IMG/VR virus record: IMGVR_UViG_3300029517_000011
Reading direction: 5' to 3' (one strand)
Length of the DNA: 31,484 nt
From: a virus
Lineage: Duplodnaviria > Heunggongvirae > Uroviricota > Caudoviricetes
The stretch's first letter is position 1, and every line of letters starts with the position of its first letter. The notes beneath the pieces are model-generated. The model searched no databases. It had not been told where the DNA came from and saw only the letters and a list, made by a program, of their open reading frames with translations. The position numbers and the translations under genes are program-made. Below, one piece after another: positions 1 through 15,876 of the stretch.

Positions 1-88
1 GCGGTGAACGTACCGTCCTGGTTGGGGAACACGCCACATACCAGAGATTCGCTGTTGCCAAGATCGATAGTATCCATGCTGACCTCAT
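1..88 (-). CDS. Hypothetical protein, N-terminal 29 codons only (candidate first gene of the leftward early operon; continues past the window start)
   Basis: ATG at 86-88 (minus) immediately after an in-frame stop, open to the window edge (MRSAWILSILATANLWYVACSPTRTVRSP...). Lies downstream of the operator-like palindrome at 191-210. SD-like AAGGGG is very close to the ATG. Confidence 0.25.
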   Translation of the reverse strand, partial: MRSAWILSILATANLWYVACSPTRTVRSP

Positions 89-190
89 TTCCCCTTAACG
101 CCGGGGTAGCGGAACTGTTTGCTGAGAACACCGTGCGGTGTCTTGATGGAAAATAATTTAGAATAACCTAACATGAGAGGCAAGTGTTTT

Positions 191-210
191 TTGTTAGATT
201 GATCTAACAA
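191..210. promoter_or_regulatory. Operator-like palindrome TTGTTAGA-N4-TCTAACAA on the distal side of the repressor gene (OL-like)
   Basis: Perfect 8-bp inverted arms separated by 4 bp; same half-site (TTAGA...TCTAA) as the palindrome at 703-720 on the other side of the repressor gene. Confidence 0.5.
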
Positions 211-245
211 AAAGGGTGGGCGCAACTAATCACTTGAAAAGAATG

Positions 246-653
246 TTATTTTATTGATTTATTTTTACGCGCTTTAAGCATTTCTTCGAAGAGTTTGTTG
301 AAGTTTTCTACTCTTGCGCGCATTTCAGACAGCAAGGCTTCCTGCTCGGAAGATGGAAGAGCATCGAATAATTCGATCAATTCTTTGTGGTTGGGAGTTA
401 GCTCTGTTTCCACATGAAGTTCTTGTGCAGGCACTGGTGCCTTGTCTTCGTCACCAAACATTAGCCATGTAGGTGAGCACTTCAGAGCATCCGCTAAAGC
501 AAACAATCGTTTTCCGACTGGCTGGGTTTCGTCTCTTTCCCATTGTGAAATTGTGACGTGAGCAACTCCAGCGAGGCGCGCGGCTTCTCGTTGTGTTAAG
601 CGTAATTCTTTTCGTCGCGCCAGAACTCGCTGGCCCAGGGTTCTTGTATCCAT
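246..653 (-). CDS. dicA: Phage repressor, DicA-like XRE-family HTH protein (135 aa)
   Basis: 135-aa ORF with an N-terminal HTH (LRLTQREAARLAGVAHVTISQWERDETQP) and a C-terminal segment (CSPTWLMFGDEDK...NFNKLFEEMLKARK) that I recall as characteristic of E. coli Qin DicA. Divergent from a small cro-like gene, with palindromes on both flanks. Confidence 0.8.
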   Translation of the reverse strand: MDTRTLGQRVLARRKELRLTQREAARLAGVAHVTISQWERDETQPVGKRLFALADALKCSPTWLMFGDEDKAPVPAQELHVETELTPNHKELIELFDALPSSEQEALLSEMRARVENFNKLFEEMLKARKNKSIK

Positions 654-662
654 AGTTAGGTA

Positions 663-720
663 ATTCTAATTTTTCTTGACTTAGGTATCCCGCGCACAAT
701 AATGTTAGAAAAGTCTAACA
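663..720. promoter_or_regulatory. Divergent promoter/operator region between the repressor and cro-like genes
   Basis: Plus strand: TTGACT (676-681), 16-17 bp spacer, AATAAT/ATAATG (698-704), overlapped by palindrome TGTTAGA-N4-TCTAACA (703-720). Minus strand: TAGAAT -10-like hexamer (663-668) 9 nt before the repressor ATG with no SD, suggesting a near-leaderless repressor mRNA. Confidence 0.5.
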
Positions 721-734
721 AGAGGGGGGCTTTG

Positions 735-962
735 ATGCTTAAAGTTGACGCAATTACTTTTTTTGGCAGCAAAACAAAGCTTGCCAATGCCGCAGGAGTG
801 AGGCTGGCAAGTGTTGCTGCTTGGGGGATACTGGTTCCTGAAGGTCGCGCGATGCGTCTACAGGAGGCATCTGGCGGGGAGCTTCAGTATGATCCCAAAG
901 TTTATGATGAATATCGTAAGACGAAGCGGGCGGGGCGGTTGAACAATGAAAATCACTCCTGA
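735..962 (+). CDS. dicC: Cro-like small regulator, DicC-like (76 aa)
   Basis: ORF track frame 702-962; I place the start at ATG 735 because the predicted transcript start lies near 710 and AGAGGGGGG precedes 735. 76-aa product (MLKVDAITFFGSKTKLANAAGVRLASV...) matches DicC in length, position and, as far as I recall, sequence. Confidence 0.7.
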   Translation: MLKVDAITFFGSKTKLANAAGVRLASVAAWGILVPEGRAMRLQEASGGELQYDPKVYDEYRKTKRAGRLNNENHS

Positions 963-1467
963 ACAGGCTCGTGAGGCTCTGGATGCCTGGATATGTCGAC
1001 CAGGAATGACACAGGAGCAGGCGACGATATTAATCACTGAAGCATTCTGGGCTTTGAAAGAGCGCCCGAACATCGATGTTCAGCGTGTCACAGATGAAGG
1101 TGGCGCGGTTGATCAGCGAGCGCTTGGTGTTAATCGAGTGAAGATATTCGAACGCTGGAAGGCTATCGACACCAGGGATAAGCGTGAAAAGTTCACGGCG
1201 CTAGTGCCTGCGATTATGGAGGCTATCCGGATTAGTGATTTCAGGTTGTATCGTGAAATTACTGACGGAAAAAGCATCACGTGCATGATCGCCGGGTTAA
1301 ACAAAGAATATGGCGATGTGGTGGAGTCCGGACTGCTTTTTGCTGATCCTGCCGTAGTGGATCGTGAAACTGACGAACTTATAGAAAAAGCAATTGCTTT
1401 CAAGCTTGCGTATCGACAGCAATACCAACAAAAAGCTGGATGGAATTATGAGCCTTCTTTTTGCTGA
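946..1467 (+). CDS. Hypothetical early-region protein (173 aa), in the position of cII/YdaT-type regulators
   Basis: ORF track 946-1467; its start overlaps the end of the cro-like gene and its end overlaps the replication gene start. Function is inferred from position only. Confidence 0.6.
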   Translation: MKITPEQAREALDAWICRPGMTQEQATILITEAFWALKERPNIDVQRVTDEGGAVDQRALGVNRVKIFERWKAIDTRDKREKFTALVPAIMEAIRISDFRLYREITDGKSITCMIAGLNKEYGDVVESGLLFADPAVVDRETDELIEKAIAFKLAYRQQYQQKAGWNYEPSFC

Positions 1468-2413
1468 ACGCCCACTGGTTATAAACACGCAGCTGGCAAT
1501 GAAAATTGGCTTAAACGAAGCCATTGTTTTGCAACAACTGCACTACTGGTTGAGAGATACCAACTCCGGCATGGAATGTGATGGTGTTCGCTGGATTTAT
1601 AACACAACGGAACAATGGCTGGAACAGTTCCCATTCTGGTCAGAGTCAACGTTAAAGCGCGCGTTTGCAAGTCTGAAAACGCTGGGGCTTTTGCGTTGTG
1701 AAAAGCTCAATAAATCAAAGCGCGATATGACCAATTTCTACACGATCAACTATGGGAGCGAGCTTTTAGATGGTGGCAAATTGAGCGAATCCATCGGTTC
1801 AAAATGCGCCGCTCCATCAGGTCAAAATGACACGATGGAAGAGGTCAAAATGAAACGCTCCATTGGTTCAAAACGACCCAATGTCATCGGGGCAAAATGG
1901 CCTGATGATCTTACAGAGAATACAACAGAGATTACTACAGAGAATAAAAACACTTTTCGTCCGGAAGCTTCGCAACCGGACCCGCAGACGACTGAACAGG
2001 ATTCTTTAACCCGGAACTCCGACGCGGTTGTGTTTAGTGCGAAAAAACGCCAGTGGGGTAGCAGGGAGGATTTGGCGTGTGCGCAGTGGATCTGGGGGCG
2101 GATCGTGGGTCTCTACGAACAGGCAGCCAGTGATGATGGCGAGATCATGCGACCAAAAGAGCCTAACTGGACTGCCTGGGCCAATGACGTGCGCACAATG
2201 CGGATGCTGGATGGCAGAAGCCACAGACAAATTTGCGAAATGTTTGGTCGGGTTCAGCGAGATCCATTCTGGGTAAAAAACATCATGAGCCCGTCAAAGC
2301 TCCGCGAAAAATGGGACGAACTGGTCATCCGCCTGGGACGTTCACCTGTACAGCGTTGTGTTAATCATATTTCTGAACCGGATACAGAAATTCCGCCTGG
2401 TTTCAGAGGATAA
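1448..2413 (+). CDS. Phage replication initiation protein (O-like; iterons lie inside the gene)
   Basis: ORF track frame 1394-2413; I prefer ATG 1448 (MSLLFAERPLVINTQLAMKIGLNEAIVLQQLHYWL...), which gives an N-terminal HTH-like domain. Five 23-bp direct repeats sit mid-gene as in lambda O. The C-terminal half resembles primosomal/DnaT-like replication proteins from memory. Confidence 0.6.
   Translation: MSLLFAERPLVINTQLAMKIGLNEAIVLQQLHYWLRDTNSGMECDGVRWIYNTTEQWLEQFPFWSESTLKRAFASLKTLGLLRCEKLNKSKRDMTNFYTINYGSELLDGGKLSESIGSKCAAPSGQNDTMEEVKMKRSIGSKRPNVIGAKWPDDLTENTTEITTENKNTFRPEASQPDPQTTEQDSLTRNSDAVVFSAKKRQWGSREDLACAQWIWGRIVGLYEQAASDDGEIMRPKEPNWTAWANDVRTMRMLDGRSHRQICEMFGRVQRDPFWVKNIMSPSKLREKWDELVIRLGRSPVQRCVNHISEPDTEIPPGFRG
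1791..1950. repeat. Candidate origin of replication: five tandem 23-bp iterons (1791-1905) followed by an A-rich segment (1906-1950)
   Basis: Units start at 1791, 1814, 1837, 1860 and 1883, with consensus about CCATNGGTTCAAAATG. Exact 23-bp periodicity (TCAAAA at 1799, 1822, 1845, 1868, 1891). Followed by TACAGAGAATA-type A-rich repeats. Confidence 0.7.
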
Positions 2414-2453
2414 GTGTTGATTTCAGGTCATGAGGTAATTTTAAGGGGGACTT

Positions 2454-2876
2454 GTGGCAAAAGTTTTTACACAAGAAGAGCGGGAAAAAATTAAATGGCA
2501 GGTGGTGGAACTCGTGCGCCAGAGCGGCCGTGAGACGTTACGGCAACTGGAAGCTAAAACAGGTGCGACTAGATATCTGATGAGCGTTCTTGCCAGAGAG
2601 CTGGTAGCCAGTGGCGATGTATACAACTCCGGCTACGGGTTATTCCCCTCTGAACAGGCGCGTAAGGACTGGCAAAACGCCCGCAAAAAACTCTCGAGGG
2701 CAAAGGTGAAGAAACCTGCTGTGGTTGATCCGGACCTTATCTGGTCATCACCTGACGGAGAAATACGTCGCTACGACAGTCGCCTAAACATAATCTGTCG
2801 CGAGTGCCGGAAGAGCGAAGTTATGCAGCGCATACTGGCTTTCTATCAGGGTAATTTTCAGGACGTGGCGCAGTGA
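2454..2876 (+). CDS. Hypothetical protein (140 aa)
   Basis: GTG start at 2454 preceded by SD TAAGGGGGA. Stop overlaps the next gene's start (GTGA at 2873-2876), suggesting translational coupling. Confidence 0.6.
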   Translation: MAKVFTQEEREKIKWQVVELVRQSGRETLRQLEAKTGATRYLMSVLARELVASGDVYNSGYGLFPSEQARKDWQNARKKLSRAKVKKPAVVDPDLIWSSPDGEIRRYDSRLNIICRECRKSEVMQRILAFYQGNFQDVAQ

Positions 2877-3229
2877 GTGCACCGGCAACCATTCTTGATA
2901 TGTGCTGTGGCAGCCGCATGTTCTGGTTCGATAAGTCTGACAAACGGGCGATATTCAGCGATATCAGAAAAGAAGGATACACATTACGCAATGGGAGACG
3001 CTTGATTATCAGCCCTGACATTATCGCAGATTTTCGTGCATTATCATTTGCAGACGCATCTTTTTCGATGGTTGTATTAGACCCTCCGCATCTTGAGCGT
3101 GTTGGTGATAACGCCTGGATGGGAAAGAAATATGGACGGCTGAATAAAGATGCCTGGCGTGATGATTTGCGACAGAGATTTAAAGAAGCTTTTCGGGTGT
3201 TGAGGCCGCACGGCGTTCTGATTTTTTAA
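2873..3229 (+). CDS. SAM-dependent DNA methyltransferase-like protein, probably C-terminally truncated or interrupted by an in-frame TAA
   Basis: Motif I-like LDMCCGSRMF near the N-terminus and DPPH (motif IV-like of N6/N4 amino-methyltransferases) at about residue 70. ORF ends at TAA 3227-3229, but the same frame stays open for 29 more codons (WNETQIPVSQILALTDRKPVICQRTGKKR) to TAA 3317-3319. Confidence 0.5.
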   Translation: MSAPATILDMCCGSRMFWFDKSDKRAIFSDIRKEGYTLRNGRRLIISPDIIADFRALSFADASFSMVVLDPPHLERVGDNAWMGKKYGRLNKDAWRDDLRQRFKEAFRVLRPHGVLIF

Positions 3230-3491
3230 TGGAATGAAACGCAAATACCGGTAAGCCAGATTCTGGCACTGACAGATAGAAAGCCTGTTATCTGTCAACG
3301 AACAGGGAAAAAACGATAAAACCCACTGGATTATTTTTATGAAAGAGGCATCCAGTGAGTAGATTCGTAAGGTTACAGATACGTATATCTGAATAATTAA
3401 ATTCAGTTCTGTAAATAAAACTTAATCCTTAACCGGATGGATTTCTGCACCCTCAGAACATCAGGAGGCCGCCCGAAAGGGCGGTAGTGAA

Positions 3492-3602
3492 ATGCGAAAG
3501 TTCAAAATTATTATTGAAACGGGAATAGCTGGTGGAGATTTTGAGGATGTATTCGAAGTGGACGATGACGCAACACCTGATGAAATTCATGACGGAGCAT
3601 AA
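3492..3602 (+). CDS. Small acidic hypothetical protein (36 aa); frame remains open for 23 codons beyond the TAA
   Basis: ATG 3492 follows a GC hairpin (3468-3485, GAAA loop) and GGAGG at 3463-3467. Product MRKFKIIIETGIAGGDFEDVFEVDDDATPDEIHDGA. Below the size cut-off of the ORF track. Confidence 0.3.
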   Translation: MRKFKIIIETGIAGGDFEDVFEVDDDATPDEIHDGA

Positions 3603-3666
3603 GAAATTTTCTTTAACTACTGCAATTACTCATACCACGAAATAAAAGACGATGAGGAAGAACAAA

Positions 3667-3777
3667 GTGGCTGATTTTTGTTCAGCTAAATATAACATCA
3701 GTTTTGAAGAGCGGGATGAACTATTAATGGACTATGGTGAATTACGCGGTGGAAGTGCTGCTGATGTCGAATCCTAG
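3667..3777 (+). CDS. Small hypothetical protein (about 37 aa); same frame reopens after TAG 3775-3777 for 21 codons
   Basis: SD GAGGAAG at 3655-3661 then GTG 3667 (alternative ATG 3652). Acidic, protein-like product (...YNISFEERDELLMDYGELRGGSAADVES). Confidence 0.25.
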   Translation: MADFCSAKYNISFEERDELLMDYGELRGGSAADVES

Positions 3778-3839
3778 CGTGATGACTATGAAGCGGGAAA
3801 AACTCCGGTCGAAGCATATTGTGATGAGTGGGGCGATGA

Positions 3840-4094
3840 ATGAGCGAGATTAATTATCAGGAAGGGCATGAAACGGCGGGGCAAGCAAAACCAGTGGCAT
3901 GGCGATATCGCTACGTGAAAAAAGCGTTACGGACTTTCAGGGGAAGTAGTGGTCTGGTGACTGGAAATATGTACCGAAAAAAGAGGATTGTAACGACAGG
4001 CCGAACTATCAAATTCAGGCCTTATTCACTGCCTCACCAGTCCCGGTTACATCAGAAGAACTGGTTAAAGCTGTGCACTTTTATGAACAACTAA
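3840..4094 (+). pseudogene. Possible frameshifted or degraded small gene
   Basis: ORF-track ORF 3840-4094 starts plausibly (MSEINYQEGHETAGQ...), but its 3' half looks non-protein-like while the -1 frame reads a protein-like ...VPVTSEELVKAVHFYEQLKRENPPTSGN. Confidence 0.3.
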
Positions 4095-4380
4095 AACGCG
4101 AAAATCCACCAACATCCGGCAACTAGATTAATGGATTAACTATGTCGGTTAAACGACCAGCCAACTGAAAAAGCGGAAACCTGATTACAGGTTGCCAGAT
4201 AAGGCAATGAGCTACCTGGCGCGGAACGGACTGATAAGTATGGGGAATGTTTTACGATGAACCTTTAGACTAAAGAGTTTGTAACGCTATGTAAGTGATT
4301 TTTTCTGGTTTAGATATTTATATGTCCGGCCAAATTGAGGTGTGTTTAAATGTAATTGCACATTGATTGTAGGAGGAATA

Positions 4381-4560
4381 ATGAAAAACGCATTGCAGTT
4401 TTTGTTTGTTGCGTTCTGGTTGTTCGCATCATGTATGCCCATCATCTTCACAGCAAGGTATATGGAAAAAGTTGATGTTTTGATATTAATATTTGGATAT
4501 ATAAATGCCCTTTTTTTAGGGGTGTTCATGGCGGTCATGTGCATTGAATACTGGCGGTAA
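4381..4560 (+). CDS. Small hydrophobic membrane protein (59 aa, two predicted TM segments)
   Basis: ORF track frame 4342-4560; strong SD AGGAGG then ATG 4381 (MKNALQFLFVAFWLFASCMPIIFTARYMEKVDVLILIFGYINALFLGVFMAVMCIEYWR). AT-rich upstream region. Confidence 0.55.
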   Translation: MKNALQFLFVAFWLFASCMPIIFTARYMEKVDVLILIFGYINALFLGVFMAVMCIEYWR

Positions 4561-4708
4561 ATACAGCGAACTCCATTGGTTTAGTTGGATATTTACTGTG
4601 CTGGACAAAAACGGTTTGCGGGGAAATCTTAGTTAAGTAGAATGACTGCGGGTGCTTGAGGCTATCTGCCTCGGGCATGGACACCAACGGCAGATAGAGA
4701 AAAGCCCC

Positions 4709-6584
4709 AGTTAACATTACGCGTCCTGCAAGACGCTTAACATTAATCTGAGGCCAATTTCATGCTAGACACATGTAGGTTAGCCTCTTACGTGCCGAAA
4801 GGCACGGAGAAGCAGGCTATTGTTAACACCAAGCTGTAATGTCCCCTTTGAACCATTCTAAAATGTCCCCAGACAATTCTCTGGGGGATTTTTCATGACC
4901 AAAGAAACTGTTACGATGAGTCATAAGGAACTCCACCGACTTCAGATTATTCAGGAGTCAATTAATCGACATATTACTCAGGAACAAGCTGCGGCACGCA
5001 TTGGCATTTCTATTCGGCAGGTTAAACGTCTGGTGCAACGGTATAGAAATGAAGGGCCTTCTGGTCTGGTTTCCCACCGACGTGGAAAGCGTCCTAATAA
5101 TTCCTTTTCTACTGAATTCAGAGCAACAGTAATTTCACTCCTCAAAGGCCGTTACGCTGATTTTGGACCTACGTTTGCGTGCGAAAAATTGCGCGAGATA
5201 CACGGTTTATCTTTATCCGTTGAAACTCTCAGAAAGTGGATGATAGAAGAGGGGTTATGGCGTGAACGCCGTCGTAAAATTGCCCGTATATATCAACGCC
5301 GCATGCGACGACCATCTTACGGTGAACTGATCCAGATTGATGGCTCACCTCATGACTGGTTTGAAAATCGAGGCCCCAGATGTACACTGATCGTTTTCAT
5401 TGATGATGCCACCAGTGCGTTGATGGCGTTGCGTTTTGTGCCTGCTGAAACAACCCGGGCTTACATGGAAACCCTCCGGGGTTACCTTAATGATCATGGC
5501 GTACCGCTCGCTCTCTACTCTGATAGACACAGTATATTCAGGGTAAATAACCCAGAGCGGGAAGGTGAGCTGACCCAGTTCACTCGTGCGATAAAGACAC
5601 TGGGCATCGAGCCAATCCATGCCAACAGCCCGCAGGCAAAAGGGCGGGTAGAGCGCGCCAATCAGACACTACAGGACAGGCTGGTCAAAGAAATGCGGCT
5701 TCAGAATATCAGTGATATTGAAACAGCAAATGCATGGTTGCCGACCTTTATTGAAGCCTATAACAACCGGTTCGCTACGTCGCCTCGTACTACTGATAAT
5801 GCTCATCTTGATGTGCACCATTCTGAAGAGGAACTGGGTTATATCTTCAGCCTACAGGCGAAGCGCGTTCTGTCTAAAAATCTCACTTTCCAGTACAAAA
5901 GCAGTGCGTTTCAGGTACGCAGTGAGGGCCGGGGATATCGACTTAGGCATTCGGTTGTTACTGTATGCGAGAACTTTGACGGTGAAATTAACGTTCTGTA
6001 TGACGGGAAAGCGCTGGGCTGGGAAAAGTATGTTGATGGCCCGGAGCCTATACCACTGGATGATGAAAAGAGTGTCCATGAACGAGTGGATAATGCCCGT
6101 ATTGATTTACGCTCAAAATACTATGTTAAACCTAAAGCTGACCATCCCTGGCTTACGCGCCGAACGCAAAGTCATCAGCAAGTTAAGCCCCCGAAGTTAC
6201 CTAAAAAGAAGCCTGATCCCGATAAAAAAGATTGAAACCAAGATCGATTCGGTTGAGTGCATATCCATTCATAGGGTAGATTCTTAAGTCGCGTTTCTGG
6301 TGTTCATTTTCGGGTGGTTTGTTACTTGTTTTACCGGGGATATGCCAGAAACGCGCTGAGTCAGTCTGGGCGGTGCGCGTAATGAGGCGTTATGGTAAAT
6401 AGCCTATGCTAATGTCCGCTAAGAGCAAGAAGCGGAAGTTGGCAGTTTTGTGGACTGTCCCCACAAAAGTGACTACAGAAATAGTTGCAATTCATAATTG
6501 ATCATGGGTTGTCAGTTAAACTCGTGGCGATTTAAATAGACTAATTGGGAGTGCGTCCATTACTTATATCTTGTAATGTTAACT
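4709..6584 (+). mobile_element. Insertion sequence with a single rve-type DDE transposase; ends not resolved (4709 and 6584 are only a provisional 12-bp inverted match)
   Basis: Single transposase gene 4895-6235 with no second IS gene, interrupting the phage nin-like region. AGTTAACATTAC (4709-4720) is the reverse complement of 6573-6584. No convincing longer terminal inverted repeat found by eye. Confidence 0.3.
4895..6235 (+). CDS. IS transposase, HTH N-terminus plus rve integrase-core DDE domain (446 aa); IS481/ISNCY-like architecture
   Basis: ORF track 4895-6235. N-terminal HTH (ITQEQAAARIGISIRQVKRLV). Catalytic-core-like segments LIQIDGSPHDW, ALYSDRHSIF and ANSPQAKGRVERANQTL fit D, D, E spacing of retroviral-integrase-type transposases. 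SD GGGGGA sits inside a hairpin (4867-4886) before the ATG. Confidence 0.85.
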   Translation: MTKETVTMSHKELHRLQIIQESINRHITQEQAAARIGISIRQVKRLVQRYRNEGPSGLVSHRRGKRPNNSFSTEFRATVISLLKGRYADFGPTFACEKLREIHGLSLSVETLRKWMIEEGLWRERRRKIARIYQRRMRRPSYGELIQIDGSPHDWFENRGPRCTLIVFIDDATSALMALRFVPAETTRAYMETLRGYLNDHGVPLALYSDRHSIFRVNNPEREGELTQFTRAIKTLGIEPIHANSPQAKGRVERANQTLQDRLVKEMRLQNISDIETANAWLPTFIEAYNNRFATSPRTTDNAHLDVHHSEEELGYIFSLQAKRVLSKNLTFQYKSSAFQVRSEGRGYRLRHSVVTVCENFDGEINVLYDGKALGWEKYVDGPEPIPLDDEKSVHERVDNARIDLRSKYYVKPKADHPWLTRRTQSHQQVKPPKLPKKKPDPDKKD

Positions 6585-6630
6585 ATCAGAAATGATACAA
6601 AGATAATATGTCTTTAAAGAAAAGGCTGAT

Positions 6631-6657
6631 GGCGAAAAGTGGCCCGATGAGGGCCAC
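6631..6657 (-). terminator. Intrinsic terminator downstream of flxA
   Basis: On the minus strand: stem GTGGCCC / GGGCCAC with a 5-nt loop followed by a U-run (complement of GGCGAAAA at 6631-6638). Confidence 0.55.
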
Positions 6658-6671
6658 AATACGGCTGTCAC

Positions 6672-7004
6672 TTAGACGTAAATATCAATGGTGCCAGCGG
6701 TATTTGTATCGTCTTTTTTCTCTTCTTTTTTATCAGGCTGAACTGTCGCGTCTTCATTCTTTTTCTCTGCCTGCTGCCTTAACAACTGCTCCAGTTGAGC
6801 CCAGAGGCTTTCAATTTGCTTCTGTACCAATGCAGCCATTTCTTTTTTCTGCTGTGTCGTCATCCCCTCTTCCGATGAGATTTTCCCAAGCTTTTCAGTC
6901 AGCACCTGAATTTGTCTTGTGATTTTGGCTATTTCTGATGTTCCTTCCGGGGCGGAGTTGTTTGAAATAACGGTTGAGGTATTTCCCTGAATTGTGACAG
7001 ACAT
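6672..7004 (-). CDS. flxA: FlxA-like protein (110 aa)
   Basis: ORF track 6672-7004. N-terminus MSVTIQGNTSTVISNNSA and 110-aa length match my recollection of E. coli Qin FlxA. Preceded by SD AAAAGGAGAAA and a sigma-28 consensus promoter. Confidence 0.7.
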   Translation of the reverse strand: MSVTIQGNTSTVISNNSAPEGTSEIAKITRQIQVLTEKLGKISSEEGMTTQQKKEMAALVQKQIESLWAQLEQLLRQQAEKKNEDATVQPDKKEEKKDDTNTAGTIDIYV

Positions 7005-7027
7005 AGATTTCTCCTTTTAAAAAAGCA

Positions 7028-7054
7028 CTATCGGCATGAACAAAAAAATCTTTA
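7028..7054 (-). promoter_or_regulatory. Sigma-28 (FliA) type promoter for flxA: TAAAGATT-N11-GCCGATAG
   Basis: Minus-strand sequence TAAAGATTTTTTTGTTCATGCCGATAG matches the FliA consensus TAAAGTTT-N11-GCCGATAA at 7/8 and 7/8 positions with the canonical 11-nt spacer, about 25 nt upstream of the flxA ATG. Confidence 0.7.
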
Positions 7055-7206
7055 ATCGTATTTCTTGTGTCATTAATTGTTTGATGTTCAGATTGTTTTC
7101 CTCGCGGGCTGGCGCGCCTCAGAAAGTAAAGCTTGTTGACAGGGGTAAACGTTCGGCAATAATTTTCTGCCGCATGCGGGTGTTGCATAAAACGTGTTAC
7201 GTTCCT

Positions 7207-7512
7207 TTATCGACAGGTCAGGTCACCGCTCACCCGCCGACGAGAAAGCAACACTGACATGCTAAAGCAAAAAATAGATGAATAAGTTGAGTTGTGCATA
7301 TGTAGCCTGACCGTCACAAAGTATATGGTGTCTGTACCAGTAAGATGATGGCCGGACTCTTTAAAAACGAGCTGACCTGCACAATACAGGATGGACTTAG
7401 CAATGGCTGCTCCTGGCACAAAGCGGACAGTGATCACCGTTCTTACGACTACTTTCTGACTTCCTTCGTGACTTGCCCTAAGCATGTTGTAGTGCGATAC
7501 TTGTAATGACAT
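7207..7512 (-). CDS. Hypothetical 101-aa ORF (possibly YdfV-like by position); may be non-coding
   Basis: ORF track 7207-7512 between flxA and relB, same strand as flxA. Composition is not convincingly protein-like and it overlaps the relBE promoter/operator. Confidence 0.25.
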   Translation of the reverse strand: MSLQVSHYNMLRASHEGSQKVVVRTVITVRFVPGAAIAKSILYCAGQLVFKESGHHLTGTDTIYFVTVRLHMHNSTYSSIFCFSMSVLLSRRRVSGDLTCR

Positions 7513-7525
7513 TTGTAATTACAAG
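7473..7525 (+). promoter_or_regulatory. relBE promoter with operator palindrome (relO-like)
   Basis: TTGCCC (7473-7478), 17-bp spacer, GATACT (7496-7501), overlapped by inverted repeat CTTGTAAT-N10-ATTACAAG (7500-7525). SD AAGAGGTG precedes relB ATG 7537. Confidence 0.55.
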
Positions 7526-7536
7526 AGGTGTAAGAC

Positions 7537-7776
7537 ATGGGTAGCATTAACCTGCGTATTGACGATGAACTTAAAGCGCGTTCTTACGCCGCGCTTGAAA
7601 AAATGGGTGTAACTCCTTCTGAAGCGCTTCGTCTCATGCTCGAGTATATCGCTGACAATGAACGCTTGCCGTTCAAACAGACACTCCTGAGTGATGAAGA
7701 TGCTGAACTTGTGGAGATAGTGAAAGAACGGCTTCGTAATCCTAAGCCAGTACGTGTGACGCTGGATGAACTCTGA
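7537..7776 (+). CDS. relB: RelB antitoxin (79 aa)
   Basis: ORF track 7537-7776. MGSINLRIDDELKARSYA...KPVRVTLDEL matches E. coli RelB as I recall it. Stop overlaps the relE start (TGATG). Confidence 0.9.
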   Translation: MGSINLRIDDELKARSYAALEKMGVTPSEALRLMLEYIADNERLPFKQTLLSDEDAELVEIVKERLRNPKPVRVTLDEL

Positions 7777-8063
7777 TGGCGTATTTTCTGGATTTTGACG
7801 AGCGGGCACTAAAGGAATGGCGAAAGCTGGGCTCGACGGTACGTGAACAGTTGAAAAAGAAGCTGGTTGAAGTACTTGAGTCACCCCGGATTGAAGCAAA
7901 CAAGCTCCGTGGTATGCCTGATTGTTACAAGATTAAGCTCCGGTCTTCAGGCTATCGCCTTGTATACCAGGTTATAGACGAGAAAGTTGTCGTTTTCGTG
8001 ATTTCTGTTGGGAAAAGAGAACGCTCGGAAGTATATAGCGAGGCGGTCAAACGCATTCTCTGA
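7776..8063 (+). CDS. relE: RelE mRNA-interferase toxin (95 aa)
   Basis: ORF track 7776-8063. MAYFLDFDERALKEWRKLG...; RelE/ParE-family size and position immediately after relB. Confidence 0.9.
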   Translation: MAYFLDFDERALKEWRKLGSTVREQLKKKLVEVLESPRIEANKLRGMPDCYKIKLRSSGYRLVYQVIDEKVVVFVISVGKRERSEVYSEAVKRIL

Positions 8064-8134
8064 ACCAAAGCATGACATCTCTGTTTCGCACCGAAGGTGA
8101 CACTTCTGCTTTGCGTTGACAGGAGAAGCAGGCT

Positions 8135-8290
8135 ATGAAGCAGCAAAAGGCGATGTTAATCGCCCTGATCGTCATCTGTTTAACCGTCATAGTGACGGCA
8201 CTGGTAACGAGGAAAGACCTCTGCGAGGTACGAATCCGAACCGGCCAGACGGAGGTCGCTGTCTTCACAGCTTACGAACCTGAGGAGTAA
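8135..8290 (+). CDS. hokD: Hok-family small membrane toxin, HokD/RelF-like (51 aa)
   Basis: ATG 8135 to TAA 8288-8290, translated by hand: MKQQKAMLIALIVICLTVIVTALVTRKDLCEVRIRTGQTEVAVFTAYEPEE. Below the ORF-track size cut-off. Hok-family hydrophobic N-terminus with the conserved Cys. Confidence 0.85.
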   Translation: MKQQKAMLIALIVICLTVIVTALVTRKDLCEVRIRTGQTEVAVFTAYEPEE

Positions 8291-8358
8291 GAGACCAGGC
8301 GGGGGAGAAATCCCTCGCCACCTCTGATGTGTCAGGCATCCTCAACGCACCCGCACTT

Positions 8359-8385
8359 AACCCGCTTCGGCGGGTTTTGTTTTTT
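8359..8385 (+). terminator. Intrinsic terminator after relBE-hokD
   Basis: Stem AACCCGC / GCGGGTT with TTCG loop followed by TTGTTTTTT. Confidence 0.7.
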
Positions 8386-8457
8386 CCTGGCATTCTGGTT
8401 TACAATTCGCACGCCAGCCTGAACAACTGGCACCTGCTGCGCCAGCAGAGACAACCG

Positions 8458-12409: not shown

Positions 12410-12485
12410 GGCCCTTTAGCTCAGTGGTGAGAGCGAGCGACTCATAATCGCCAGGTCGCTGGTTCAAATCCAGCAAGGGCCACCA
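12410..12485 (+). tRNA. tRNA with anticodon CAU, ileX/ileZ-like (tRNA-Ile2 lysidine type, or Met)
   Basis: Hand-folded cloverleaf: acceptor GGCCCTT/AAGGGCC, D-stem GCTC/GAGC, anticodon loop CUCAUAA, T-loop TTCAAAT, encoded CCA. Close to E. coli ileX as I recall it. Confidence 0.8.
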
Positions 12486-12486
12486 A

Positions 12487-12563
12487 CCGCCACTAGCTCA
12501 TCAGGAAAGAGCGTCAACCCTTTAAGTTGAGTGTGCGAGGTTCGAGTCCCCGGTGGCGGTCCA
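12487..12563 (+). tRNA. Atypical tRNA: anticodon loop CCUUUAA (formal anticodon UUU, Lys-like) with C instead of U at position 33; C1-G72 acceptor pair
   Basis: Folds as a cloverleaf (acceptor CCGCCAC/GTGGCGG, D-stem GCTC/GAGC with GG in the loop, anticodon stem TCAAC/GTTGA, T-arm GGTTCGAGTCC, encoded CCA) but has a noncanonical position 33 and an A-C mismatch in the T-stem. Confidence 0.55.
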
Positions 12564-12565
12564 GT

Positions 12566-12641
<76 letters not shown>

Positions 12642-12644
12642 TAT

Positions 12645-12719
<75 letters not shown>

Positions 12720-15369: not shown

Positions 15370-15684
15370 CACATCATGCGCTGTATCGTCGCCGTATTCC
15401 CGTATTAACAGAGACCGTAGCCCGACGGGGAACTCCTTCTGCGCGAGTGTGCGGGAATAATCAAAAACGATGCACACCGGGTTTTTACCGCGTTTATGGT
15501 TCGCGGGTTTGTCCCTCATGCTCGCCAGTCCTGTGCGGGGGTGGAAGAAACAGGACACTTACACAGATTCTTGTGGGCACGATGCTATGCCTTTCTGGAT
15601 TATCCCGATGCCATTCATGCAAGGCGTTGTATCAGACGTTCGTCAGAGCTGTCAGGCTGACGGGTCCTCCCGGTGGGGTGGCCT

Positions 15685-15710
15685 GCCACGGGGCGGGAGC
15701 GTCGCGGAAA
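15685..15710. other. Candidate cos site (cosN-like GC-rich element) upstream of the terminase small subunit
   Basis: ACGGGGCGGGAGCGTCGCGG (about 15688-15707) resembles the lambda cosN region (ACGGGGCGGCGACCTCGCGGG from memory). Followed by an AT-rich region with an 8-bp inverted repeat ATGTCGAA...TTCGACAT and about 500 bp with no convincing ORF. Confidence 0.4.
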
Positions 15711-15876
15711 AAGGCTAGTTTTTGCATTTTTATCGGCCACCATCATCTTTGCATCTTATTGATTATTAATGGTTATTTTTTTTTTGCATGTCGAATTGAG
15801 TGTTTTTTGTTCGACATCGAACGCGTTTTCTTAAAGTTGTTCGCACGATGCATATTTAAAGCTCTCCGGAGGAAAT

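Follow-up and report, generated by a model that had tools for sequence, protein, structure and literature searches.

We analysed a stretch of 31,484 nucleotides from the IMG/VR virus record IMGVR_UViG_3300029517_000011 (hereafter the window), whose left end carries a phage-type repressor gene with a control region on either side. The repressor scores 224.7 bits against the NCBIfam model NF007257 (transcriptional repressor DicA; cutoff 101), its residues 1-134 aligning with positions 1-134 of the 135-position profile, and is 57% identical over 132 aa to DicA of Escherichia coli K-12. Its only Pfam match is HTH_3 at residues 12-64, an N-terminal helix-turn-helix of the Cro/C1 type, and Pfam gave no match to an S24 peptidase (autocleavage) domain in the protein. 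Residues 1-71 match the N-terminal domain of the P22 repressor C2 (E = 1.3e-18), a domain whose complexes with DNA have been solved; the rest of the protein has no match in C2, and its C-terminal domain is short and unrelated to that of C2. Across the control region at 654-734, the divergent open reading frame (ORF) encodes a DicC protein (165.8 bits against NCBIfam DicC, cutoff 130; 45.9 bits against Pfam P22_Cro) that is 86% identical to K-12 DicC, and the genes after it encode a YdaT-like protein and then a DUF977 protein (Pfam). On the left, the window opens inside ydfA. We consider it highly probable that positions 1-962 are the immunity (lysis-lysogeny) switch of a Qin-type lambdoid Escherichia prophage, built in the manner of immC of phage P22. 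The features of the switch, comprising the leftward operators and promoter (OL and PL), the rightward ones (OR and PR) and the genes they serve, are listed in Table 1.

Table 1. Genes and predicted control elements at the left end of the window (arrows give minus-strand direction).
Feature	Position	Strand	Remarks
ydfA, 5′ end (DUF1391)	1-77	-	Heads the leftward early operon (dicBF type); cut by the left end of the window
Leader of the leftward transcript, ~60 nt, CCAUCAAGACACCGCACGGUGUUCUCAGCAAACAGUUCCGCUACCCCGGCGUUAAGGGG	89-148	-	Two short hairpins, at 127-142 and 91-106; conserved single-stranded motifs (CAUCAA, CUCAG, GUUCCGC)
PL-like (dicBp-type) promoter	-35 TTGCCT 183->178; -10 TAAATT 160->155	-	17-nt spacer; predicted start near 147-149
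Promoter-proximal OL operator, core TTAGA ATAA CCTAA	156-173 (core 158-171)		One mismatch; position of P22 OL1
Distal OL operator, TTGTTAGA TTGA TCTAACAA	191-210 (core 194-207)		Position of P22 OL2
Repressor gene	246-653	-	DicA family, 135 aa, NCBIfam NF007257
Oa/OR3-like operator, core TTAGG TAAT TCTAA	654-671 (core 656-669; centre 662.5)		Over the repressor -10 and predicted start
PR-like (dicCp-type) promoter, TTGACT-16-AATAAT	676-681 / 698-703	+	Consensus scan; colinear with K-12 and P22
Om/OR2-like weak site, TTAGG-TATC-CCGCG	681-694 (centre 687.5)		Left half good, right half poor
Oc/OR1-like operator	702-721 (core 705-718; centre 711.5)		Over the PR -10 end and predicted +1 (about 710)
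DicC (P22-Cro-type regulator)	735-962	+	75 aa; Shine-Dalgarno (SD) sequence at about 721-728

An earlier note on this DNA had described the repressor gene as flanked by one matching operator palindrome on each side. Direct reading of the window confirmed the sequence and coordinates of both. The one downstream of the repressor gene, now the distal OL operator, is a perfect 8-4-8 palindrome. The one in the divergent promoter region, TGTTAGA-AAAG-TCTAACA at 703-720, is a perfect 7-4-7 palindrome whose first base is the last of the PR -10; it stops at 7 bp per half because positions 702 and 721 are both A. A search of both strands of the whole window for TTAGA-N4-TCTAA, the motif that the note had proposed, with one mismatch at most, returned only four core matches, at 158-171, 194-207, 656-669 and 705-718. 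All four fall in the intergenic regions that flank the repressor gene left and right, 0.53 matches were expected, and none of 100 dinucleotide-preserving shuffles reached four. The full 18-mer TGTTAGA-N4-TCTAACA has exactly two mismatch-free copies in the window, and by our own arithmetic (14 fixed bases, 31 kb) the number of second perfect copies expected by chance is about 1e-4. Both palindromes are therefore real, but the count of one per side was too low: with the imperfect copies at 158-171 and 656-669, which had been overlooked, there are two sites on the left and at least two on the right, and with the weak middle site at 681-694 the predicted layout is bipartite at OL and tripartite at OR.

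The three sites of the rightward control region agree in position with P22 OR3, OR2 and OR1; as dyads, Oa and Oc match well, and the middle site has only its left half good in the window allele. The centres of Oa and Om are 25 bp apart and those of Om and Oc 24 bp. At the Om position, the PPompW, Enterobacter and Pantoea alleles read TTAGG TTTC TCTAC, with one mismatch. The PR-like promoter agrees with the consensus at 10 of 12 positions and is the sole sigma-70 match in 1-1000. On the left, the start of the PL-like promoter was predicted by analogy with P22 and K-12, and the same promoter architecture recurs in K-12 (TTGACC-17-TAATCT), at P22 PL (TTGACC-17-TAAATT) and in the Citrobacter and Enterobacter loci. 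The proximal OL site sits in the PL spacer and overlaps the -10, a position that is occupied in all loci of the TTAGR class defined below. The distal site, its centre 36 bp from the proximal one, lies just upstream of the PL -35 and abuts it. The palindrome at 191-210, which the note had taken as the leftward site, is thus operator-like as proposed but distal, the promoter-proximal OL operator being the imperfect copy at 158-171. Phase-constrained looping between OL and OR was considered and rejected: the offset of OL from the repressor stop codon runs from 49 to >90 bp among alleles, and since the distance between OL and OR is not conserved, looping is without support.

To see how these sites vary in nature, we compared 83 loci whose repressors are 94-100% identical, representing 50 distinct haplotypes (the window, Escherichia ruysiae, Escherichia albertii and 80 IMG/VR contigs). 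The 80 contig loci came from a scan of viral contigs with a repressor alignment and are nearly all of one allele, which makes them usable for a population footprint but not for allele diversity. Across the 50 haplotypes, the half-sites vary at 0-2 of 10 columns per operator, mainly by A<->G or T<->C exchange at the fifth position, whereas nowhere in the 700-bp region is variation greater than in the central 4 bp of the two perfect sites. The load of minor haplotypes per column is 10.25 and 8.25 for the central 4 bp, 0.6-0.9 for the half-sites and 1.0 for the repressor coding sequence. The proximal OL site is nearly invariant, and the Oa core (656-669) is invariant at 14 of 14 positions. In P22 operators, positions 2-7 and 12-17 are contacted by the repressor, while positions 8-11 are uncontacted and differ among natural operators (PMC4267663). 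Fixed half-sites beside a variable centre are the pattern that would be expected of P22-type operators, and comparative data alone, without experiment, here display the contrast between contacted and non-contacted positions of such an operator.

The second comparison set the recognition helix against the dyads at OR and OL in 12 loci. Helix VAHVTISQWE goes with the dyad TTAGR-N4-YCTAA in the window, in Citrobacter, Buttiauxella, Enterobacter and Pantoea, in the PPompW/Stx phages and in a Stenotrophomonas phage, and helix VSHVTISQWE goes with the same dyad in Klebsiella phage ST405-OXA48phi1.2. K-12 DicA (ISHVSVSQWE) is paired with TTAGY-N4-RCTAA, phage mEp460_ev081 (VSGSSISLWE) with TTGAG-N4-CTCAA, and Cronobacter phage phiES15 (KSSVSVFKWE) with CTAAC-N4-GTTAG. 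Each allele carries its dyad on both sides, at the position of Oc and past the 3′ end of the repressor gene. In the TTAGR class, even the flanking base switches palindromically at both OL and OR, from GTTAG...CTAAC in Escherichia and Citrobacter to CTTAG...CTAAG in Enterobacter, Pantoea and PPompW. The functional temperate phage mEp460_ev081 adds a natural exchange: window positions 1-161 and 831-2858 are 97-99% identical to it, whereas 162-830 are unrelated. The swapped cassette takes in the two OL sites, the repressor and OR and extends ~32 codons into DicC, and its left junction falls exactly at the PL -10. Precisely these parts would have to evolve together if the same operators, left and right, served both repressor and Cro. 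The covariation of OL, OR and recognition helix supports the view that one repressor may control both sides. The earlier note's proposal that a single repressor governs the rightward cro-type and the leftward early promoters thus gains support from family membership, from the K-12 DicA data described next and from this covariation, although as a statement about the window protein it remains a prediction from homologues and sequence.

Work in vivo has shown binding of K-12 DicA to the 20-bp dyad Oc, which disappears when dicA is deleted or when a single A->C change is made in one half-site; from Oc, DicA represses dicC, and expression of dicA itself depends on it (PMC3441716). DicA also strongly represses dicBp, the analogue of PL, DicC acts like Cro in a bistable switch, and the antirepressor Rem relieves repression by DicA (PMC10448788). 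By extension, a dimer of the window repressor would recognise 18-bp dyads TGTTAGR-N4-YCTAACA through 7-bp contacted half-sites around 4 central non-contacted bp. Bound at the strong Oc dyad (703-720), it would block PR and so keep the cro-like, ydaT-like and replication genes off. Bound at 158-171, probably with help from the strong site at 191-210, it would occlude the PL-like promoter, and the two OL sites together would silence the ydfA-...-dicF-dicB-exo-xis-int operon. By analogy with K-12, the repressor's own promoter would need repressor bound at Oc, and occupancy of Oa, most likely by DicC acting as Cro does at OR3 or else by excess repressor, would shut that promoter.

Several points weigh against parts of this scheme. 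The consensus scan did not call the PL-like promoter, because its 8 of 12 matches fall below the scan threshold. Only about 7 of the 10 core positions in the Om-like site fit the consensus, and K-12 DicA did not bind Om or Oa alone in vivo (stated in PMC3441716 as data not shown). The invariance of Oa could come from its overlap with the -10, the start and the ATG instead of from protein binding. The centre of Oc lies at -55.5 relative to the predicted repressor start (calculated from the sequence), where class I or class II activators do not usually bind. The roles given to Oa and Om are accordingly the least certain part of the scheme, and operator binding, the transcript starts, activation from Oc and the action of DicC on Oa we infer from homologues.

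The dyads might instead be primarily DicC sites, at which this Cro-type protein would shut off the repressor and damp early transcription, with the DicA-like protein binding elsewhere. In lambdoid phages, Cro and repressor share operators, and the exchanged cassette at 162-830 carries the N-terminal DNA-binding part of DicC besides the repressor; because it includes parts of both proteins, covariation alone cannot separate the two. Overexpression of DicC also represses dicA in O157:H7, according to work cited in PMC10448788. On the other hand, K-12 DicA itself binds the homologous Oc in vivo (PMC3441716), and the geometry of the dyads (7-4-7 over 18 bp, TTA in the half-site) is that of the operators bound by P22 C2, a protein homologous to the window repressor in its N-terminal domain. 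We regard exclusive use by DicC as improbable; most likely the dyads are used by both the repressor and DicC, so that this alternative is a partial one.

A second alternative concerns 191-210 alone, which could be a terminator or RNA hairpin at which the repressor transcript stops short of the leftward operon, with no protein bound. The palindrome follows the repressor stop codon by 36 nt on the repressor strand, an 11-bp RNA hairpin is possible there, and the fold of the 71-nt segment is better than that of shuffles (z = -2.7). The stem, however, is almost all A-U and is followed by AAAAAC with no 3′ U-tract, and a scan for terminators found none at 191-210. The half-sites recur at three further places where a terminator would not be expected and equal those of OR, the central 4 bp vary freely in the population, and in other alleles this site and the OR dyad change together, as would not be required of a terminator. 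We rejected this reading as very unlikely on the AT-rich stem, the missing U-tract and the empty scan. That the matching palindromes are due to chance or are purely historical, for example a duplicated segment now without function, finds some colour in the frameshifted genes and insertion sequence (IS) remnants that the prophage, parts of which are decaying, carries in near-identical genomes, but it is effectively refuted by the excess and placement of the core matches, by purifying selection on half-sites beside hypervariable spacers in 50 haplotypes, by an arrangement kept from Escherichia to Pantoea and a Stenotrophomonas phage, and by the same design in mEp460_ev081, a functional temperate phage (PMC10448788).

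As the note had stated, the repressor -10 TAGAAT (668->663) is separated from the ATG at 653 by 9 nt, TACCTAACT (..CTAACT), with no purine-rich SD sequence; we found no recognisable -35, the 17-bp position reading GGGATA. The K-12 counterpart reads TAGCAT-TAGCTAACT-ATG, likewise a -10, 9 nt and ATG, and P22 has TAAGAT, 9 nt and ATG. A T-A-N-N-A-T hexamer is present 6-9 nt from the ATG in 12 of 12 loci, even where the operator sequence differs. The primary start of K-12 dicA, mapped by differential RNA-seq and confirmed by RNA ligase-mediated reverse transcription PCR (RLM-RT-PCR), is 3 nt before the AUG (PMC4681348, Table S3). dicA is among five E. coli mRNAs with a leader of <10 nt, alongside the prophage repressors racR and ymfK (PMC4681348), and has been handled as a known leaderless gene (PMC8794815). 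By analogy, the repressor start is predicted at 656, seven nt after the -10 and 3 nt before the ATG. The suggestion of a near-leaderless repressor mRNA is therefore well supported, though not new, the window keeping the arrangement of K-12 dicA (-10, 9 nt, ATG).

The first gene of the leftward operon does not start where the note had placed it. The annotated and conserved start codon of ydfA is the ATG at 77->75 (MDTIDLGNSESLV...), so that the first 25 codons lie in the window (translation MDTIDLGNSESLVCGVFPNQDGTFT). The ATG at 88->86 belongs to a different reading frame from ydfA and stands just upstream of GAGG (87->84), the likely SD sequence of ydfA. The gene label comes from the annotation of genomes 100% identical over window positions 1-1500, in which the leftward operon runs ydfA-ydfB-ydfC-DicF-dicB-ydfD-exonuclease-xis-int. 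Genomes 99.8% identical over 1-8384 also have the complete dicBF operon, and the DicF RNA in those genomes matches Rfam RF00039 at 76.7 bits.

Between PL and ydfA, the transcript leader is kept in 10 loci whatever the immunity allele or the first gene, namely in Escherichia, Citrobacter, Buttiauxella, Enterobacter, Pantoea, Klebsiella and Cronobacter phages and a Stenotrophomonas phage. The fold of the single window sequence is no better than that of shuffles. Hairpin II shows compensatory changes at 2 of 4 pairs, and from the ten-sequence MAFFT alignment, which left hairpin I out of register, RNAalifold recovered hairpin II alone. Comparison with Rfam gave no family match. An nhmmer profile of the leader found in the window only the leader itself (plus its orthologues elsewhere) and no second, putR-like copy downstream of PR, and a put-like RNA of the HK022 kind was rejected on that result. 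Applied to HK022 at 22-30 kb, the profile found nothing, the presence of PL in that sparsely annotated stretch being unconfirmed. It is conceivable, though we think it rather unlikely, that the leader is an undescribed cis-acting RNA that stands in for the N/nut system lacking downstream of PL in these Qin-type phages. Its role might then be factor-independent antitermination, or stabilisation or processing of the transcript.

For induction, neither of two familiar routes is recognisable in the window. A tblastn search with three Rem proteins gave no match better than E = 0.3. In the closest genomes, rem lies between hokD and a DUF968 gene, where ~420 bp (15384-15805 in genome L115) are replaced by 56 bp at window positions 8385-8440; Rem at about 8.5 kb, as expected from a genome identical over the first 1.5 kb, was accordingly rejected, the window diverging there with no Rem homologue. 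Control by LexA was likewise rejected, no canonical LexA box CTGT-N8-ACAG being present anywhere in the window.

The switch region is common: 546 of 5,426 complete E. coli genomes cover at least 80% of the first 1.5 kb, many of them with 100% identity, and in the 100%-identical genomes it lies at the Qin attachment site beside rspA/rspB. An identical repressor occurs in E. ruysiae and one 99% identical in E. albertii. No complete E. coli genome matches the window over its full length, the best covering 82% at 97.9% identity, with breaks at about 8.4, 9.5-12.4 and 14.2-15.7 kb. At ~2918-3362 and ~4900-5960, two genomes (L001 and L115) that are 99.8-100% identical to this part of the window are annotated with a frameshifted S-adenosylmethionine (SAM)-dependent methyltransferase and a truncated ISEsa1 transposase, and the methyltransferase ORF in the window ends after 118 aa. 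The prophage is partly decayed, though its replication, lysis, head and tail genes are kept. Four plus-strand tRNA genes at 12410-12719 were assigned by ARAGORN to Met(cat), Lys(ttt), Thr(tgt) and Gly(tcc). They occupy the position of the cluster in the closest genome, downstream of an antitermination-protein gene; that genome annotates three, Ile, Thr and Gly, so that the CAT anticodon is read as Met by ARAGORN and as Ile there.

Among known systems, the repressor promoter resembles that of lambda cI (PRM) and of CP-933P PaaR2 in its divergent, PRM-type position, a -10 close to the AUG, a leader of 0-3 nt (predicted for the window) without an SD sequence, and a -35 that is weak or absent, with activator dependence thought likely. 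Unlike in lambda cI and PaaR2, the predicted start is 3 nt upstream and not at the A of the AUG, and the window repressor is not closely related to either. Whereas the activating OR2 of lambda is at -42, the putative activating site of the window is centred near -55.5, as calculated from the sequence. In length and in lacking an autocleavage domain, the repressor is like the short Gifsy repressors GfoR, GtgR and GfhR (Lemire et al. 2011, as cited in PMC10448788), a likeness by class description only. According to the same source, Gifsy-type short repressors are inactivated by binding of a small antirepressor, as K-12 DicA is relieved by Rem; the window has neither a Rem homologue nor a LexA box.

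The likeness to P22 immC (c2, cro, OR1-3 and OL1-3) is closer. Both have operators (predicted ones in the window) of 18 bp, in which 4 central bp free of contacts separate contacted 7-bp half-sites, homologous N-terminal repressor domains, TTGACT as the PR -35 with OR1 over the PR -10/+1, and a Cro of the P22_Cro family; P22 OR2 lies just after that -35. On the left, the window aligns with P22 PL, including the -35 CACTTGNC and the -10 TAAATT, with one operator in the spacer and a second upstream in both; P22 reads CACTTGACC-17-TAAATT, with OL1 in the spacer and OL2 35 bp upstream, against a spacing of 36 bp in the window. Unlike C2, which has 216 aa and a RecA-sensitive S24-type C-terminal domain, the window repressor has 135 aa and no S24 domain; its half-site is TTAGA and not TTAAG, and the middle OR site is degenerate. 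P22 carries gene 24 (an N-type antiterminator) after PL, where the window locus has ydfA, ydfB and ydfC instead. The repressor would thus work like that of P22 immC at the DNA level, yet is not of the C2 type.

The closest relative is the Qin prophage of K-12, with the same gene order and strands (ydfA <- dicA-like <- / -> dicC-like), repressors of 135 aa in both, the same NCBIfam families, a dicBF operon to the left, and OR and OL regions that align colinearly. The window dyad 702-721 aligns column for column with K-12 Oc (TTGTTAGTTATGACTAACAA), and 654-671 is colinear with K-12 Oa (AGTTAGCTAATGCTAAAT) and P22 OR3 (AGTTAAGTCATCTTAAAT) at an equal offset from the repressor ATG. Unlike K-12 Qin, the window prophage keeps its replication, lysis, head and tail genes, and rem is absent from the window. 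The 57% identity of the repressors is accompanied by a changed helix (VAHVTISQ against ISHVSVSQ in K-12), and the fifth position of the half-site is a purine in the window (TTAGA/TTAGG) and a pyrimidine in K-12 (TTAGT/TTAGC); the window allele therefore probably differs from K-12 DicA in immunity specificity. A smaller possibility is that the Qin-type prophages of E. coli fall into heteroimmune DicA classes, set by this purine/pyrimidine position together with residues 31 and 34 of the recognition helix. The layout itself has been known since the 1980s from K-12 Qin (1986/1988), already then seen as P22-like, and from P22, and the K-12 switch was revisited experimentally in 2012 (Yun et al., PMC3441716) and 2023 (Ragunathan and Vanderpool, PMC10448788); it is not new biology. 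What is specific to the window is a common, uncharacterised DicA allele with base-level promoter and operator coordinates that are useful for annotation. Through DicB and DicF, DicA controls inhibition of cell division, altered phage susceptibility and sugar uptake (PMC10448788), and knowing which DicA alleles share a specificity and which differ would help to predict cross-repression between co-resident Qin-type prophages.

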